Source: a virus
DNA length: 64,000 nt
Direction: 5' to 3' (one strand)
Virus record (IMG/VR): IMGVR_UViG_3300018080_000110
Location: 85,225-149,224 of that record
In this document: positions 4,735 to 50,119 of the stretch, piece after piece
Numbering within the stretch: position 1 is the stretch's first letter
How the letters are laid out: every line of letters begins with the position of its first letter
Made by a program: the position numbers and the translations under genes
The notes under the pieces: generated by a model
Databases searched by the model: none
Told to the model about the DNA's origin: nothing
The model's input: only the letters and a program-made list of their open reading frames with translations

Positions 4735-5733
4735 GTGCGTGTCCAGCAAGTAGTGGAGTCGCTAGCAGATCAATATCTTAAATGGTGGAGGCCTACCAGC
4801 GATGGCAAAAACATCTACGGCGCGTGCCCATTCCATCACGAGTCTACAGAAGGCGCGTTCTACATGTCCACAGAGACGGGCATGTTCATCTGTCACGCCT
4901 GCCAAGTTAGAGGCAGCCTACCGACCTTCCTTAAAGAGATAGGAGCTCCTAGCCGCACGCGGCAAGTCGTGATGGACCAAGTAGGCACGGAGCTGCTGCG
5001 CAAAGAGAAACCAAATCTAGCTCGCAAAGACCCATTCAAGAAGCACATGGCACTGGAGGAGAGCCTCCTAGGGATCTTTGACTTTTGCCCAACCGTCTTA
5101 TTGAAGGCCGGTTTCTCCAAAGCCGTCCTCAAGAAGCACGAGGTGGGTTTTGATCGAGAGTCCATGAGGATCATATTCCCAATCCGTAGCCATCTTGGTG
5201 TGCTGATGGGTTTAGCGGGAAGAACAGTGGTAGATGAGCGGCCACGCTACAAGATCTACAAGGAGGGAGATCTAGCTAGATTCTCTCCCAGGTACCGCGG
5301 TTACGACTTCCACAAGAAGAACTTCCTTTGGAACTTCCACAACGTCTACCCGGAAGCTCTACGTGAAGAGCAAACTCCGATATGCGTTGTAGAAGGGTAC
5401 AAGGCTGCGCTCTGGTTGATCCAACATGGATTCACTAGCACTGTAGCCATCATGGGCTCGTACTTGTCTGAGATGCAGCGTGCTTTACTACAGCGACTGT
5501 CATCAGACATATTCGTGCTTTTGGACAATACCGACTCAGCTAGAAAAGGAGTGCTGGACGCAGGAAAAAGATTGAGAAGAGGAAACAGAGTATTGGTTTG
5601 TGAGTATCCGAGGTACTGCAGCGGCGGAGAACAGCCCGACGACTTGATGGAAGAAGAGCTGGCCGCTGTGTTTGAAGAAGCAGTGATCTTTAACAAATGG
5701 AGAAGGAAGTATGAGCGTTCACGATCCGTCTAA
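4735..5733 (+). CDS. dnaG: DnaG-like DNA primase (CHC2 zinc finger + TOPRIM)
   Basis: CPFH...CHAC zinc finger, IIFPI...GR...PRY, VVEGY and LLDN TOPRIM motifs. Confidence 0.9.
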   Translation: MRVQQVVESLADQYLKWWRPTSDGKNIYGACPFHHESTEGAFYMSTETGMFICHACQVRGSLPTFLKEIGAPSRTRQVVMDQVGTELLRKEKPNLARKDPFKKHMALEESLLGIFDFCPTVLLKAGFSKAVLKKHEVGFDRESMRIIFPIRSHLGVLMGLAGRTVVDERPRYKIYKEGDLARFSPRYRGYDFHKKNFLWNFHNVYPEALREEQTPICVVEGYKAALWLIQHGFTSTVAIMGSYLSEMQRALLQRLSSDIFVLLDNTDSARKGVLDAGKRLRRGNRVLVCEYPRYCSGGEQPDDLMEEELAAVFEEAVIFNKWRRKYERSRSV

Positions 5734-6903: not shown

Positions 6904-8322
6904 ATGTGGCACAAACTCCCAGTGCCTGAATGGATCGACGACGAAGAGCGCATGCTGAAGTTGTGCAAAGAGATCAAGGACATTGGGTTTGCCGGGCTAG
7001 ATACAGAAACCACAGGCAAAGACGACTGGATGAAGGACTACGTACTGTTCTGGTCTCTGTCCACGGGGTCTAACAACAGGTACTGCTTGTCTCGCAGAAT
7101 GCTAGAGATCTTTGACAAAGAGCTAGCAGGGGATCCATGCATCACCTGGTACATGACCAACGCGAACTTCGATCGTTGTATGTTGCTGAACAGCGGAGTT
7201 CGTCATTTAGCTGGTCCTGTACACTGCACACTTGTCATGGACTGGATGCACGATGAAAATCGAGCTGGTCGGCACGGCCTGAAAAAGACAGCTTTGGACC
7301 ATCTTGGTCTCAACATGAACGAGTTCAAGAGCGTCTTCAAGAAGAGGAAGGGTGAGACCTACCAAGACACTCTCTTACGCATGATGGCACAAGAGCCAGA
7401 CAAGGCAATCGACTACGCCAGCATGGACGCATGGGCCTCTCGGGAGTTGCACGGATACCTGAAGAAGAAGCTCGAGGAAGAGATAGCTTGTACCGGTATC
7501 CCTCTATGGGATCTATACGAGCGAATCGAAGTTCCGTACAGCACCACTCTTTTGCACAACATGCGAAACGGTATATTGCTAGATCAAGGGTGGTTACATC
7601 ATATACGCGTACCCATCACGGAAAAGATGGAGGAGTGCCTCTTCAAGTTCAACAAGATGGCCGGGTACGAGGTAAACCTTAATTCGCCGAAGCAACTGGT
7701 GGAGCTTTTTGTCGACAAACTCGGAAAGAAGCCCCTGAAGTGGACAAGTGGCGGGAAGAGCGGCAACAAGCAGCCCTCCGTGGACGTCAATGTCTTGCAG
7801 ACTTGGGCAGACGAAGGAGATCCCTACGCGAAGTTGCTGATGGAGTTCCGCAAGCTTGAGAAGGTTAGAGGGACTTACGTAGACGGAATGCTAGCCCGAG
7901 TGGGATCTGATCTCCGTATCCACCCAATCATCAACCAACACATCGCTGTCACCGGACGACTGACTAGCTCGAACCCAAACCTTCAAAACATCCCAAGACC
8001 AGATGAGGACATCTGGGGCTTGCGTGGTGCTTTCATGCCCGGCACTGGCTACACGCTAGTCGCCATCGATTATCGTCAATTGGAAATGCGACTTCTGGCT
8101 CACATGTCCGGCGACAAGAACATGCGAGAGGTGATCAGGAAAGGATGGGACATCCACGCAGGAACCGCAGCATTGATGTACGAAGTACCTTACGAAGAGA
8201 TCCAAGAAGCTAAGTTCCTCAAGGGGTGGCTCAGCGAAGAAAAAGTAGACAGTAGCAGGTGGCCAGATTGGATCTCTGAGTTCATTGGATACCGACAAGA
8301 CGCCAAGGCCATTGGATTCGGT
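6904..8322 (+). CDS. polA: DNA polymerase family A, exon 1 (3'-5' exonuclease and N-part of polymerase domain)
   Basis: AGGAGG RBS and ATG at 6904. ExoI LDTET, ExoIII YASMD, TGRLTSSNPNLQNIP, motif A DYRQLEMRLLAH, and motif B start RQDAKAIGFG. Confidence 0.92.
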
Positions 8323-8620
8323 CAACATAGAGGCCGAAGTAAAACTCGCTCAAAACGGGGAAACCTAAGTGCGAATGCATAAGGCAATCCCGTGCTGCGT
8401 TGCCAAACGTAGTGTATCGACTTGTGGTCATGATCACATGACCCTCAATACGCTTCCCATGTCCATTGGGTTGGGTAGTCATTTCCCGCAAAGCGTGTTG
8501 ATACGGCGAGCGAAGCCTGTAGTATTCGGAATGTCATTGTGCATGATTGCACAGCGAACCTGCCGAATAGTACAGGCTCGAAGGTATAGTCAGTGCCCTT
8601 GGAAACAAGGGAATAGCACG
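8323..8620 (+). mobile_element. Group I intron (298 nt, no homing endonuclease ORF, IA-like) in polA motif B
   Basis: Exon ends in U and the intron ends in G. P1 TTCGGT/GCCGAA has a U-G pair at the splice site. Also P3 TCGCTC/GAGCGA, P4 ACGGG/CCCGT, P7 GACT/AGTC, P7.1, P7.2, P8 and P9 CCCTTG-GAAA-CAAGGG. Removal restores AKAIGFG-INYG in frame. Confidence 0.93.
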
Positions 8621-9241
8621 ATCAATTACGGAGAAGGAATTCCAGCCTTGGCCGAAAAGCTCGGTATCTCCAAGAGAGAAGCAGCAGCCAGAAAAGAGAA
8701 GTACTTTGAGCCGTACCCGCTGGTACGAGAGTTCATCGAGGAAACACACGAAAGGTGCCGTAGAGAATTAGAGGTCTCTACGATCTTGGGTCGTAAACGG
8801 AGACTCAAAGAAGCTGACGCTGACTGGAAGGAAGGATTCTATAGCAGGCGGTATAAGAGGTGGGTCCCAGAACGTCCAGGGAAGTTAGCTGCTAGAGCTC
8901 TTCGACAAGCAGTGAATGCGATCATTCAGGGTTCAGCAGCAGAGGTAGCACGCCTAGCGCAGATCTTGTGTGAGCCCAAGGTCATGCGCGAGATTGGTTT
9001 GCATGACGAGTTGTCCCAACGTATCGAACAAGTCGGTGCGCGGCAGCTTCTTCAGGTTCACGACGAAGTCTTGTTCGAGGTACCGACAGAGAACTTGAAA
9101 GAGGGCATAGAGGTTTTGTCTCGTTCAATGGAAGCGCCGTTCAGATACGTTCCAGAACTTTTGGGGATCGACTTCGATGAACTATCGATCCCGCTTGATG
9201 TGGACGCTGGTTACGGCGAAGCTTGGTCGGAAGCACATTGA
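8621..9241 (+). CDS. polA: DNA polymerase family A, exon 2
   Basis: INYG..., GRKRRL, AVNAIIQGSAA and motif C LLQVHDEVLFE; spliced product is 679 aa. Confidence 0.92.
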   Translation: MNYGEGIPALAEKLGISKREAAARKEKYFEPYPLVREFIEETHERCRRELEVSTILGRKRRLKEADADWKEGFYSRRYKRWVPERPGKLAARALRQAVNAIIQGSAAEVARLAQILCEPKVMREIGLHDELSQRIEQVGARQLLQVHDEVLFEVPTENLKEGIEVLSRSMEAPFRYVPELLGIDFDELSIPLDVDAGYGEAWSEAH

Positions 9242-14078: not shown

Positions 14079-14705
14079 ATGGCCAGTGAAGAAACTTTCA
14101 CAAGAGAAGAGATGCTCGACATGCCGCGTTTGCAGGTTCGTCGAAGATGTCGAGCACGCGGACTGAGTGCGGAAGACTGTGCCCAGATGAAGTTCGAAGA
14201 CATGGTTGACTGGCTCATAGAAGACGAGGGCGGCGGCAGTAACTCGAAAGCGAAGAAGGCGACGAAGAGGTCTTCCAAGAAAGCAACCAAGAAGACCGCC
14301 GCAAAGGAAACGAAGAAAGCTCCGGCAAGGACCACTCGTAAGAAGCGGGCGGCGAGATCTGAGCCGGAGGAAAGAGAGAAGCCGACCGGAGAAGTCGTCG
14401 GCGACGACCTCGTCAACGTCTTGCTCGAGAAGTTCGCTGATATGGACGAGAGGTTCCACGCTCTAGAGGAAAGGGTGGACTCCATCGGCGAATTCATGGA
14501 CAAGAACACGTCCAGCATCGTCGAGATCTTGAACGAAGTCCGCGCCGACACCTACGGTATCGCTCGCAGACAGCAACACCTCGGTAACTGGATGTTCGCT
14601 GAGGGAATCCTCCCCGAAGAAAGCGCCCCGGACGAGATGGATTTCGAGGCTCTGGAAGAGGCCATCGAGGAGGAATGCGGGGGAAACGAGGACGGCGACG
14701 AGTAA
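14079..14705 (+). CDS. Hypothetical protein: small helical N-domain, Lys/Ala-rich linker, coiled coil
   Basis: AGGAGG RBS and KKATKRSSKKATKK linker. Confidence 0.75.
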   Translation: MASEETFTREEMLDMPRLQVRRRCRARGLSAEDCAQMKFEDMVDWLIEDEGGGSNSKAKKATKRSSKKATKKTAAKETKKAPARTTRKKRAARSEPEEREKPTGEVVGDDLVNVLLEKFADMDERFHALEERVDSIGEFMDKNTSSIVEILNEVRADTYGIARRQQHLGNWMFAEGILPEESAPDEMDFEALEEAIEEECGGNEDGDE

Positions 14706-14893
14706 CAGCTCGTCGCGGAACCATACCACCTGATGGAGAACAGAAGCTCACCGTGACTGAAGAGGAGTTCTTCGAGATGTCTGTAGAAGAACTCCTCGAG
14801 CTTGCCGACCGCATAGGGGTCAGCCTGCAGGGAGCCCTATCGATCGAGCAAGCTCGCACCCGCCTATTGAACGACGCAACCTTCCTTCCATAA
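14675..14893 (+). CDS. Small protein, Rho N-terminal/HeH-like helical domain
   Basis: GAGGAGG RBS; EMSVEELLELADRIGV pattern. Confidence 0.55.
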   Translation: MRGKRGRRRVTARRGTIPPDGEQKLTVTEEEFFEMSVEELLELADRIGVSLQGALSIEQARTRLLNDATFLP

Positions 14894-14895
14894 GC

Positions 14896-14937
14896 GCCGC
14901 CCTTCGGGGCGGCCTCTCCCAATCTTCTCTCTTAGCT
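14896..14937 (+). terminator. Terminator of the replication operon
   Basis: GCCGCCC-TTCG-GGGCGGC hairpin right after the last stop, then a pyrimidine tract ending in TTAGCT. Confidence 0.75.
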
Positions 14938-14957
14938 GCAAAAAAGATCAAGATCGT

Positions 14958-14965
14958 GGGATAAG
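14958..14965 (+). promoter_or_regulatory. Putative phage promoter motif GGGATAAG
   Basis: The same GG(G/T)ATAAG motif precedes units at 60036, 61879 and 61827 (minus). Confidence 0.5.
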
Positions 14966-14970
14966 ACTTA

Positions 14971-15518
14971 TGGACAGGAAAAGGATAATCCTTTTCTTGT
15001 TGCGGCAAGCAGCTGCCTGTGCGGGTAGGAAGCTGCCTAGTACCGATTGATTGACAAGGCGCCGTGCGCACACACGGTAAAAAGCCCTGTCAATCAATCG
15101 GGAGCCGATGCAGGGATTGCCTCCTCCTCAGACGAAGGTCACCTAACGGTGGCAACGGAGGCAGCTCCTCACGCTATAGTGAGGTTGTCCGAGAGTTCCG
15201 GCGCGGACGTAAAAAACAGTCGGATGCATCGTCGCTGATTCCGCCCTCTAGGCGACGACTAGAGTAGAGAGGGTTTGCTGGCCTGGTCGACCGGCCAAAA
15301 GGTCGAACGTAGTTGACCCACGCTGCGACAAATACCTGGTACAGGGAAACCAGGAGAAGGTGGGCAGATCCCTAACCGGCGCAAGACGGGGATTGGAAGT
15401 GTCGCTCGCTGTCTTTCGGAGACGGAAGAAAAAGAGCTCTTGCAGAAGAGATCCGGATCTCTTCTTAGCTGTCACACGACTTGTGCGAGCAGTCCTTGTG
15501 CCGCAACGAGTGCGTCCA
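14971..15518 (+). ncRNA. Putative large structured ncRNA (~550 nt) with several pseudoknots
   Basis: Ends pair (TGGAC/GTCCA, CTTGTTGCGGCA/TGCCGCAACGAG, and a G-U-rich helix 15013-15025/15480-15492). Perfect 14-bp stem 15043-15056/15088-15101 and about five H-type pseudoknots. No credible ORF. Confidence 0.75.
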
Positions 15519-15612
15519 TTTCCTGACTCGTGGGGAGAAGATGCCTACTAGGAGGAGGATCGAATAGAGGAGCAGAAACTCTAGACCGCCGCAAACGCAA
15601 CAGCAGAGTCGA

Positions 15613-16161
15613 TCACTTGACGGCATACCCTACAGCTACCACAGTCGCAGCCGTTGTGACAATCCCTACAACGAGACCGAATGTCCACGAGCGGTACCAC
15701 TTCTTGGCCTTGTCTCGCTCCTTGCGAGCTCGGTCTCTCTGCTGCTCGAGGACTTTCACTCGACTCTTCTCGAGATCGAGCTGTGCTTTCAGGCGATCGG
15801 CCATGTACTTCTTCTCAATCTCTACTCGTTCAGTCGCCTTATGGCGCTCGAGCCAGCGAAGGCGACGGAGGCCTTGGATCTTGAGCCCCAACTGCAGCAC
15901 CTTGTTCTGGTCCAGGAGGACCGCGCTGTAGTCCAACCGGAAGGGCTTCTTCGCCCCCTTCTCGGTCACCAGGCTCCCAGCCTCGATCCCCAGGGACGGC
16001 CGGAACTTGAGGTCTGGAACCAGGATGCTCTCATCCGGCCCTGGACAACGCCAATTAGGGGCCTTCTTCGGGTTCGAGTAGTCCTGCTCCATACAAGGCT
16101 CTGACTGCGCCCAGGACGGGCCGCAGATTAGGAGGGTGAACAGCGCGACCATAGTCCTCAT
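15613..16161 (-). CDS. Exported coiled-coil protein with C-terminal TM helix (spanin-like)
   Basis: N-terminal signal peptide, coiled coil and C-terminal hydrophobic helix; near holin-like and i-spanin-like genes. Confidence 0.6.
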   Translation of the reverse strand: MRTMVALFTLLICGPSWAQSEPCMEQDYSNPKKAPNWRCPGPDESILVPDLKFRPSLGIEAGSLVTEKGAKKPFRLDYSAVLLDQNKVLQLGLKIQGLRRLRWLERHKATERVEIEKKYMADRLKAQLDLEKSRVKVLEQQRDRARKERDKAKKWYRSWTFGLVVGIVTTAATVVAVGYAVK

Positions 16162-49089: not shown

Positions 49090-49316
49090 TACCCCTCCAG
49101 AAACTGGCTGATACTGTCAGCCAACAGCTTCTTCGAGTCAGTGACGCCTTGGTTGGCCACTTTGCCGGCGCCTGTTCTGTTCTTGATCACAGACTTCATG
49201 AACTTCACATCTGCGTCCAATTGCTCTTTCTTCTTGTTGCCGTACTTCTTCACGGCGTCCTCGAGAGCGTCGAGACGCTTGTCCCGCTCTGTCTTTCTCA
49301 GTTCTTCGGTAGCCAT
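49089..49316 (-). CDS. Small helical protein
   Basis: Coupled to the sigma factor stop. Confidence 0.6.
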   Translation of the reverse strand: MATEELRKTERDKRLDALEDAVKKYGNKKKEQLDADVKFMKSVIKNRTGAGKVANQGVTDSKKLLADSISQFLEG

Positions 49317-50119
49317 CACGACCCCTCATAAGATTTCCACTTGGCCGCAATGGAACCTTTCAAACGCGATATCTTTGGCGCACTCATTTTGAGCCTTTTC
49401 GCTATGTCTCCTGTACCAAGACGAGGCTTGCCGGCTACACCATGAACGTACTCAAACACCGCTCGTTCGTCATTAGAGAGATCGTACGGCAGCAAATTCA
49501 TGATCTCTTTCGTGCGCGACATCTGAAAAGACGTGGGGTCTTTGTCTCCGAACTGCCCCACCGGATGGGACCTACGCAGTTCAGTACGTAACATCTCTAC
49601 CTGGTTTTTGGGTATTTTCGCGTAGTCCGAGATCTCCAACACAGTCGGAGACCGCCCAAGACGTTGACGAAGAGTATCTTCCGCCGTTTGGAACTGAGTG
49701 ATGTGCTTCAGTCGCTTCTCCCCAATCCTGGCAGGGTTCTGGTAGGTGTTGATGAACCTGTTGGCCTTCATCAACCTGTAGTTGATCCAGGTCGACATCT
49801 TACCCTTGTTCGGATCGAACGTGTCCAGAGCGCCAAGCAGCTGATTACGGAACTCGGACTGGATAGCACTTGGAGGAATGTCCCGTACCCGATGCTGAAA
49901 GATCTTCATTCGGTTGTTGACCAATGGCTGCAGAGACTGAACTAACGGTCTGAGATGCTCTGGCCTCTTACCGCTCGTCTGCCACTGCTGCCACATCTGG
50001 AGCTCTTTTCGCGCACGATCGGTGAGGGGTTTGCGCTTTCCCTGCGCAAACCCGTCCTTTTCAAGGTCTTGCTCCCCATAGCCGAGGGACTCGAGCGCGT
50101 CATCGAGCGGGTTCGACAT
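49316..50119 (-). CDS. Phage-encoded sigma70-family sigma factor
   Basis: Region 2 ALDTFDPNKG.MSTW, region 3 LRQRLGRSPT..EI, and region 4 HTH DIAKRL.MS..KISRLK. Confidence 0.88.
   Translation of the reverse strand: MSNPLDDALESLGYGEQDLEKDGFAQGKRKPLTDRARKELQMWQQWQTSGKRPEHLRPLVQSLQPLVNNRMKIFQHRVRDIPPSAIQSEFRNQLLGALDTFDPNKGKMSTWINYRLMKANRFINTYQNPARIGEKRLKHITQFQTAEDTLRQRLGRSPTVLEISDYAKIPKNQVEMLRTELRRSHPVGQFGDKDPTSFQMSRTKEIMNLLPYDLSNDERAVFEYVHGVAGKPRLGTGDIAKRLKMSAPKISRLKGSIAAKWKSYEGS

Follow-up and report, generated by a model that had tools for sequence, protein, structure and literature searches.

A probable new family of structured phage RNA carried in a variable slot between converging operons

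What is encoded in the stretch that separates the end of a replication operon (14893, plus strand) from the end of a convergent minus-strand gene (15613) in a large tailed phage? The stretch lies in a window of 64 kb, which is the whole of the DNA analysed here and forms the final part of a 149-kb virus record (~85% complete), with genes for helicase, primase, DNA polymerase, recombinase, resolvases and baseplate. The phage genome also encodes its own fused RNA polymerase, a sigma-like factor (the sigma-like gene lies at window 49316–50119) and a Pth2-like gene; a fused beta/beta-prime RNA polymerase of 2,081 aa was read at G000 C1 66538–72783 (L188 9541–15783, minus strand). An initial annotation had interpreted the stretch as a novel structured RNA of ~550 nt with closed ends and a chain of pseudoknots, placed between the replication terminator and the convergent virion region. 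This first interpretation was partly supported: the feature is real, its location is borne out by the flanking ORFs and all the motifs quoted for it were found in place, with boundaries and some helices that differ. We are fairly confident that the stretch is an RNA gene, and it probably represents a real, new family of structured phage RNA, with three members, among the known large ornate phage RNAs. Large RNAs with intricate folds are rare in bacteria and phages, and the structures of the few known classes were unexpected; if our reading is true, a clade of large, uncultured phages that encode their own RNA polymerase would add another such family.

A variable slot between converging operons

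The left flank of the slot is a small ORF of 72 aa (14675–14893, plus strand), the last of the replication/recombination operon, and the right flank is an ORF of 182 aa (15613–16161, minus strand), the final gene of the convergent virion/lysis region. A terminator-like hairpin followed by a pyrimidine tract and TTAGCT (14896–14937, plus strand), where the relatives are alike, putatively closes the replication operon. Searches with the flanking proteins retrieved overlapping sets of 11, 7, 32, 6 and 21 loci, giving 29 distinct slots read end to end (partial ones excluded; L121 hardly differs from L135). Eleven of these were empty, 16 held protein genes and two, L007 and L112, held an RNA related to that of the window; a tRNA-Met was also present in the slot of L196 and in the partial slot of L193. 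The stretch is an optional, variable cassette, and most related phages are without the RNA. A replication origin, named as an alternative at the outset, is disfavoured because 11 of the 29 related slots are empty. No second copy of the RNA was found within its own genome, and the flanking gene had no match among GTDB contigs.

A second small non-coding cassette, unrelated to the RNA and provided with its own promoter-like motif, was observed in the slot of L196 (15699–15790) and L198 (15492–15556), where its closing stem begins GGTGAGGAT. In L193, ~230 hairpin-rich, apparently non-coding bases (15470–15700) lie 3' of the tRNA-Met, and structured-looking leaders of 90–150 nt occur between the promoter-like motif and the cassette genes in L104 (~4830–4940, minus strand), in L101 (~4830–4915, minus strand) and in the slot of L137.

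Predicted start, end and fold of the RNA

A promoter-like motif (GATC ... TG-n-GATAAG) precedes the RNA at 14952–14965 on the plus strand. In its general form, GATC...(G/T)G(G/T)ATAAG, the motif had eight genomic matches, compared with 1.06 in 50 shuffles, most copies showing by eye a ribosome-binding-like tract on their 3' side. The seventh base after the hexamer is a G in all five structured cassettes examined, this RNA included, thus leading to a predicted start at G14972. As for the other end, cassettes of the slot close with a hairpin, pyrimidines and TTAGC, a pattern matched at 15444–15470 (plus strand) by a perfect palindromic hairpin of 22 nt plus TTAGCT, which is the likely 3' end and a possible site of copy-to-copy pairing. 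The palindrome may also be nothing more than a terminator; a near-identical terminator-type hairpin was found 3' of a protein gene in L118/L119. These signals suggest, as the main form, an RNA of ~500 nt transcribed from the plus strand between G14972 and ~15470.

Two reading frames were considered and rejected, namely a leaderless ORF, whose ATG at 14970 lies before the predicted start, and an internal GTG frame of 63 aa at 15360, which has a purine tract and does not stay in frame in L007. A 1-nt indel puts the conserved block in different reading frames in the window and in L007, which argues against coding.

The 133 nt at 15480–15612, with CGA repeated at the borders, were read as an insertion, because L108 and L136 pass directly from the terminator tail to the stop of the convergent gene, and L116 almost so. 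This sequence, absent from the relatives, holds a 3' arm complementary to 14971–15027, which both L007 and L112 lack, and a minus-strand hairpin with a pyrimidine tail (15578–15609). Its description as a pure inverted duplication was unsupported, the identity-only alignment being matched by 36 of 500 shuffles; with G-U pairs admitted, 6 of 500 shuffles were as good on the plus strand and 19 of 500 on the minus strand. An eight-codon mini-frame after a purine tract (15541–15567, plus strand), also inside the insertion, was not seen in the relatives.

The closed ends of the initial annotation consisted of long-range helices, mostly reaching into this insertion. Two of them stood as drawn, with 5/5 pairs in 14971–14975/15514–15518 and 12/12 pairs, one of them G-U, in 14996–15007/15499–15510. 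The helix 15013–15025/15480–15492 kept 12 of 13 pairs (five G-U) and left one position unpaired, while 15025–15034/15435–15443 gave 6 of 9 pairs ungapped and requires a bulge. The arms are indeed more complementary than expected by chance (−52.2 kcal/mol, as good in 4 of 500 shuffles on the plus strand and in 15 of 500 on the minus strand), and an interrupted duplex of ~40 bp can form between them. On the contrary, the closing helices had pair probabilities of 0.00–0.16, cost 2.3–5.7 kcal/mol with respect to the minimum and need read-through into the insertion. They compete with a 13-bp 5' hairpin (14973–15001, plus strand; z −5.75, pair probability 0.67–0.90) which is also folded by L007 and L112. 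Closed ends are doubtful, since the likelier 3' end is at ~15470 and a local 5' hairpin is probable, as in both relatives. The closed form is a possible read-through variant: transcription continuing into the insertion would yield a longer RNA, in which the 3' arm would displace the 5' hairpin.

Within the main form, and always on the plus strand, a hairpin at 15009–15036 may expose the loop UGUGCG (15018–15023), complementary to the loop CGCACA (15067–15072) of the apical hairpin on a 14-bp stem with an A-rich bulge (15043–15101; pair probability 0.98–1.0). The register of this candidate kissing pair, recognised by eye, had a probability of ≤0.15, and an equivalent motif pair is present in L112 and L007. 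It is followed by a multibranch domain (15107–15230) predicted to include two hairpins and pseudoknot 1 (15186–15224, A-rich loop 3), similar in geometry to a knot of L007 (15546–15585). In pseudoknot 2 (15230–15264) loop 3 measures 2 nt, which is sterically tight, so that junction pairs may open; pseudoknot 3 (15279–15306) is a compact H-type and pseudoknot 4 (15308–15364) has a hairpin inserted in loop 3. Pseudoknot 5 as initially drawn (15367–15404) conflicts with a helix between GCAAGA (15381–15386) and TCTTGC (15438–15443); stem 1 of the knot had a probability of 0.00 in nested folding, which cannot score knots, and the rival helix 0.01–0.43. In the form GCAAGR/YCTTGC this helix is strong in L007 (0.82–0.99) and reaches 0.01 in L112. 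The conserved 3' module (15372–15471) is composed of GTGTCGCT, a GNRA hairpin (15413–15428) that recurs in L007, an A-rich linker, YCTTGCA and the terminal hairpin. A CTGTCT-TTCG-AGACGG hairpin, proposed earlier, turned out to be out of register (0.00 vs 0.99 for the GNRA hairpin).

The chain of pseudoknots was above chance. When non-overlapping H-type pseudoknots were counted under fixed geometric rules, six were found at 14970–15470 on the plus strand against 1.8 ± 1.1 in 60 dinucleotide shuffles, none of which reached six; among the six are one other knot, at 15034–15095, and knot 5 with a different second stem. The minus strand gave four, equalled by 6 of 60 shuffles, and a stricter knot score gave three on each strand. 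Out of 1,986 windows of 300 nt covering both strands of the genome, the sole one with five knots was the RNA region.

Nested folding was equally strong on the plus and the minus strand (z −6.7 for each), so that folding energy does not decide the strand. This symmetry, and a position at the meeting point of converging transcription, where the GC skew also switches sign, would suit an element acting as DNA or in cis, such as an origin, a cruciform, an insulator between the converging operons or a long 3' UTR. We consider such an element quite improbable, given that knots are commoner on the plus strand (five vs two in 15150–15449), the GNRA loops are read on that strand, the cassette has a dedicated promoter-like motif and is missing from the empty slots, and L007 and L112 have no plus-strand gene downstream.

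Related RNAs and the conserved 3' module

As judged from sequence comparison, the RNAs of the window (~500 nt), L007 (~330 nt) and L112 (~270 nt) are related via the conserved 3' module. With the terminator left out, L007 matched the 3' module of the window with a score of 44, the best of 300 shuffles reaching 25; L007 and L112 matched each other in their middle parts (38 vs 27 in shuffles), and the direct match between the window and L112 was weak, being equalled by 7 of 300 shuffles. A model trained on L007 and L112 alone found 15372–15471 on the plus strand with 35.6 bits (E 3.5e-8), the next best match having 10.5 bits. No homologue was detectable for the first 400 nt (14970–15370), holding four of the five knots; against the two relatives, shuffles did as well in 257 and 32 cases out of 300.

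In L007 and L112, a hairpin plus a loop-loop (kissing) pair of 6 bp had 30 of 30 cells paired and three double changes in 15 pairs, a compensatory one falling in the kissing pair, whereas slid controls gave 23–62% paired and no double change. The homologue collection returned two relatives, and the covariation between these two sequences, the window not being part of the alignment, did not exceed shuffles (58 of 500 as good). In both relatives the kissing loop sits on the terminal hairpin; the corresponding hairpin in the window lacks this loop and is a perfect palindrome.

Pattern scans of viral contigs, a pattern scan of a genome collection and model searches found no further members. The viral-contig scans (87, 39, 2 and 29 stretches) each returned only the L007 contig as a true relative. 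Three look-alikes, L260, L262 and L269, were set aside, the two with listed frames lying within a long open frame, and L201, the sole pattern match in the genome collection, falls inside an open frame of 415 aa. Model searches of whole records, run on sets of 19 and 23 related viral records, each matched a single record, the training sequence itself, and BLAST against GenBank phages and plasmids gave two short chance matches and no real match. A plain DNA search with L112 as query was uninformative, as it missed even the L007 genome.

Could the cassette be a decayed or mosaic one, that is, an L007-type RNA whose 5' part was swapped for unrelated structured sequence, with loss of the joint function? 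The rarity of the element, the 5' 400 nt with no homologue and the lost kissing loop of the terminal hairpin would agree with it, but knots are denser in the unique part than anywhere else in the genome and its long stems are near-perfect, features that decay would not yield; we assign this explanation a low probability.

Comparison with known RNAs and a tentative model

No Rfam family matched the window or six related loci at the gathering score, and at E up to 10 the window, L007 and L112 gave chance-level matches only, none to a ribozyme or intron model, in a scan that also missed an intron-like insert in the DNA polymerase gene of this genome. The families suggested by the initial annotation (tmRNA, ROOL, GOLLD, OLE and RNase P) were all without a match, as were the Rfam models of SRP, 6S, group I/II introns and small ribozymes. 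Together with the promoter-like and terminator-like signals and the RNAs found at this place in L007 and L112, this supports the claim of an undescribed structured phage RNA on the plus strand. No description of the RNA appeared in the portions of the literature surveyed, mostly other than full text, including PMC12990946 and PMC10383478. According to the available parts of PMC10690425, that study screened IMG/VR intergenic regions and required at least three unique matches; the RNA was not found in six of its supplementary files, and others (files 1, 2 and 4) could list it.

An Hfq-like protein had been envisaged as partner, and no Hfq or Sm/LSm match was obtained in the genome (~85% complete). 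A ribozyme had been envisaged too. If the RNA were one, or the remnant of a mobile catalytic RNA, the 3' module would be its core and the long imperfect 5'/3' duplex a processing stalk. Dense tertiary-type structure, the duplex that the arms might form and the mobile introns present in the clade are in line with this proposal. On the contrary, no ribozyme motif was recognised, no similarity was found between the RNA and the genome's own intron, no reverse transcriptase was found in the genome (~85% complete; the control matched in 4 of 14), and the 3' arm is absent in both relatives, all of which makes a catalytic RNA rather improbable.

The serial pseudoknots, possibly within a long closing helix, recall tmRNA, and a true tmRNA in a related phage and the Pth2-like gene of this genome would accord with a highly diverged derivative of tmRNA or RNase P. 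Such a derivative is nonetheless very improbable. The absence of tRNA-like ends, already noticed in the initial annotation, was confirmed by ARAGORN, which found 0 genes in the window and detected the control tmRNA in G009; the three plus-strand frames of the RNA hold no tag-like reading frame, and its score of 24 against the relative's tmRNA is below the shuffle maximum of 31. That tmRNA, used as control in the Rfam scan, scored 116.5 bits.

ROOL is described, in the accessible parts of PMC5737381 and PMC12286853, as an accessory phage RNA of 581 nt on average, pseudoknotted, poorly conserved in sequence and provided with kissing loops. In the same parts of PMC12286853, ROOL and GOLLD are accessory phage RNAs, often near tRNAs, whose cages are stabilised by A-minor contacts and kissing loops; the 3' part of GOLLD is conserved and its 5' part variable. 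The window RNA resembles ROOL in being a large, pseudoknotted accessory phage RNA with little sequence conservation and with candidate kissing loops, and differs from it in matching no Rfam model at E up to 10. The predicted fold also looks unlike that of ROOL, a conserved six-junction, three-knot structure of ~580 nt with members tighter in size; here the three sequences, of 270–500 nt, give no consensus and the predicted knots are serial local H-type ones, mostly non-shared. ROOL and GOLLD often adjoin tRNA genes in phages; the window holds no tRNA and the tRNA cluster of the genome is ~90 kb off, and the slot takes a tRNA-Met in L193 and L196. The likeness to GOLLD lies in the conserved 3' and variable 5' regions, the phage context and the tRNA-Met in the slot of two relatives, but the window RNA is much shorter, has no Rfam match and conserves a 3' module of only ~100 nt. 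It failed the model tests for both ROOL and GOLLD and is not classed as a member of either.

The main rival explanation is a decoy, in which a string of pseudoknots of 27–57 nt would bait host RNA-binding defence nucleases, e.g., type III toxin-antitoxin toxins. Type III antitoxin arrays (toxI, cptI, tenpI) likewise consist of consecutive small pseudoknots of similar size before a terminator, and three of the five knots (35–39 nt) fit the toxI repeat size of 31–62 nt given in the accessible part of PMC3401426. The slot takes accessory cassettes, and unlike knots could bait several targets. The knots of the window are not, however, sequence repeats: no tandem repeat beyond one 9-nt unit and no antitoxin-type repeat of 31–62 nt was found in the RNA. 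The gene following its terminator is convergent, with no toxin gene there, and a ToxN profile search gave no match, its control likewise being without match. The relatives, in addition, have in common the 3' module and not the knots, L112 with at most one weak pseudoknot. A decoy appears, on balance, unlikely.

We favour, tentatively and with somewhat less than even confidence, an accessory modular RNA of a new family that would fold into a knotted body and self-assemble as a protein-free scaffold, by analogy with ROOL and GOLLD. The confidence falls from that in an RNA gene to that in the whole reading because the assembly step is added. The optional cassette would be transcribed from its own promoter-like signal into a non-coding RNA of ~500 nt, whose pseudoknots and kissing loops would make up a compact body. 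A fold in which the 3' module is conserved and the 5' modules vary is a weaker prediction than the transcript itself. Copies of the RNA might then pair with each other in the ROOL/GOLLD manner through the loop-loop pair and the palindromic terminal hairpin, a step that is speculative. A possible but doubtful extension is a new class with a protein-free, self-assembled particle unrelated to ROOL/GOLLD, built from the shared ~100-nt 3' module and phage-specific pseudoknot modules differing in number by phage, with a mobile kissing code, kept yet shifted between hairpins, and a 3' extension acting as an open/closed switch. The three natural sizes (~270, 330 and 500 nt) provide a minimal-core series for probing and cryo-EM, and could show whether cage-like self-assembly is widespread among accessory phage RNAs.

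Other features were observed in this genome and its relatives. An insert of ~295 nt at window ~8322–8617 (plus strand) splits the DNA polymerase gene; it presumably has group I intron-like motifs and had no Rfam intron match at E up to 10. L008 and L010 carry an equivalent insert that encloses an HNH-like frame, not present in the window copy, and L001 has an in-frame intein-like insertion (7600–8750) at a different site of the gene. Seven tRNA genes lie beside the Pth2-like gene at G000 C1 8400–9750 (L185), several with acceptor stems that appear weak or mismatched by eye. The true tmRNA of the related phage G009 (L246 5191–5569, minus strand), detected by both tools, has the tag ANDNHFVEEIRAAA and lies in a tRNA island of 42 genes.
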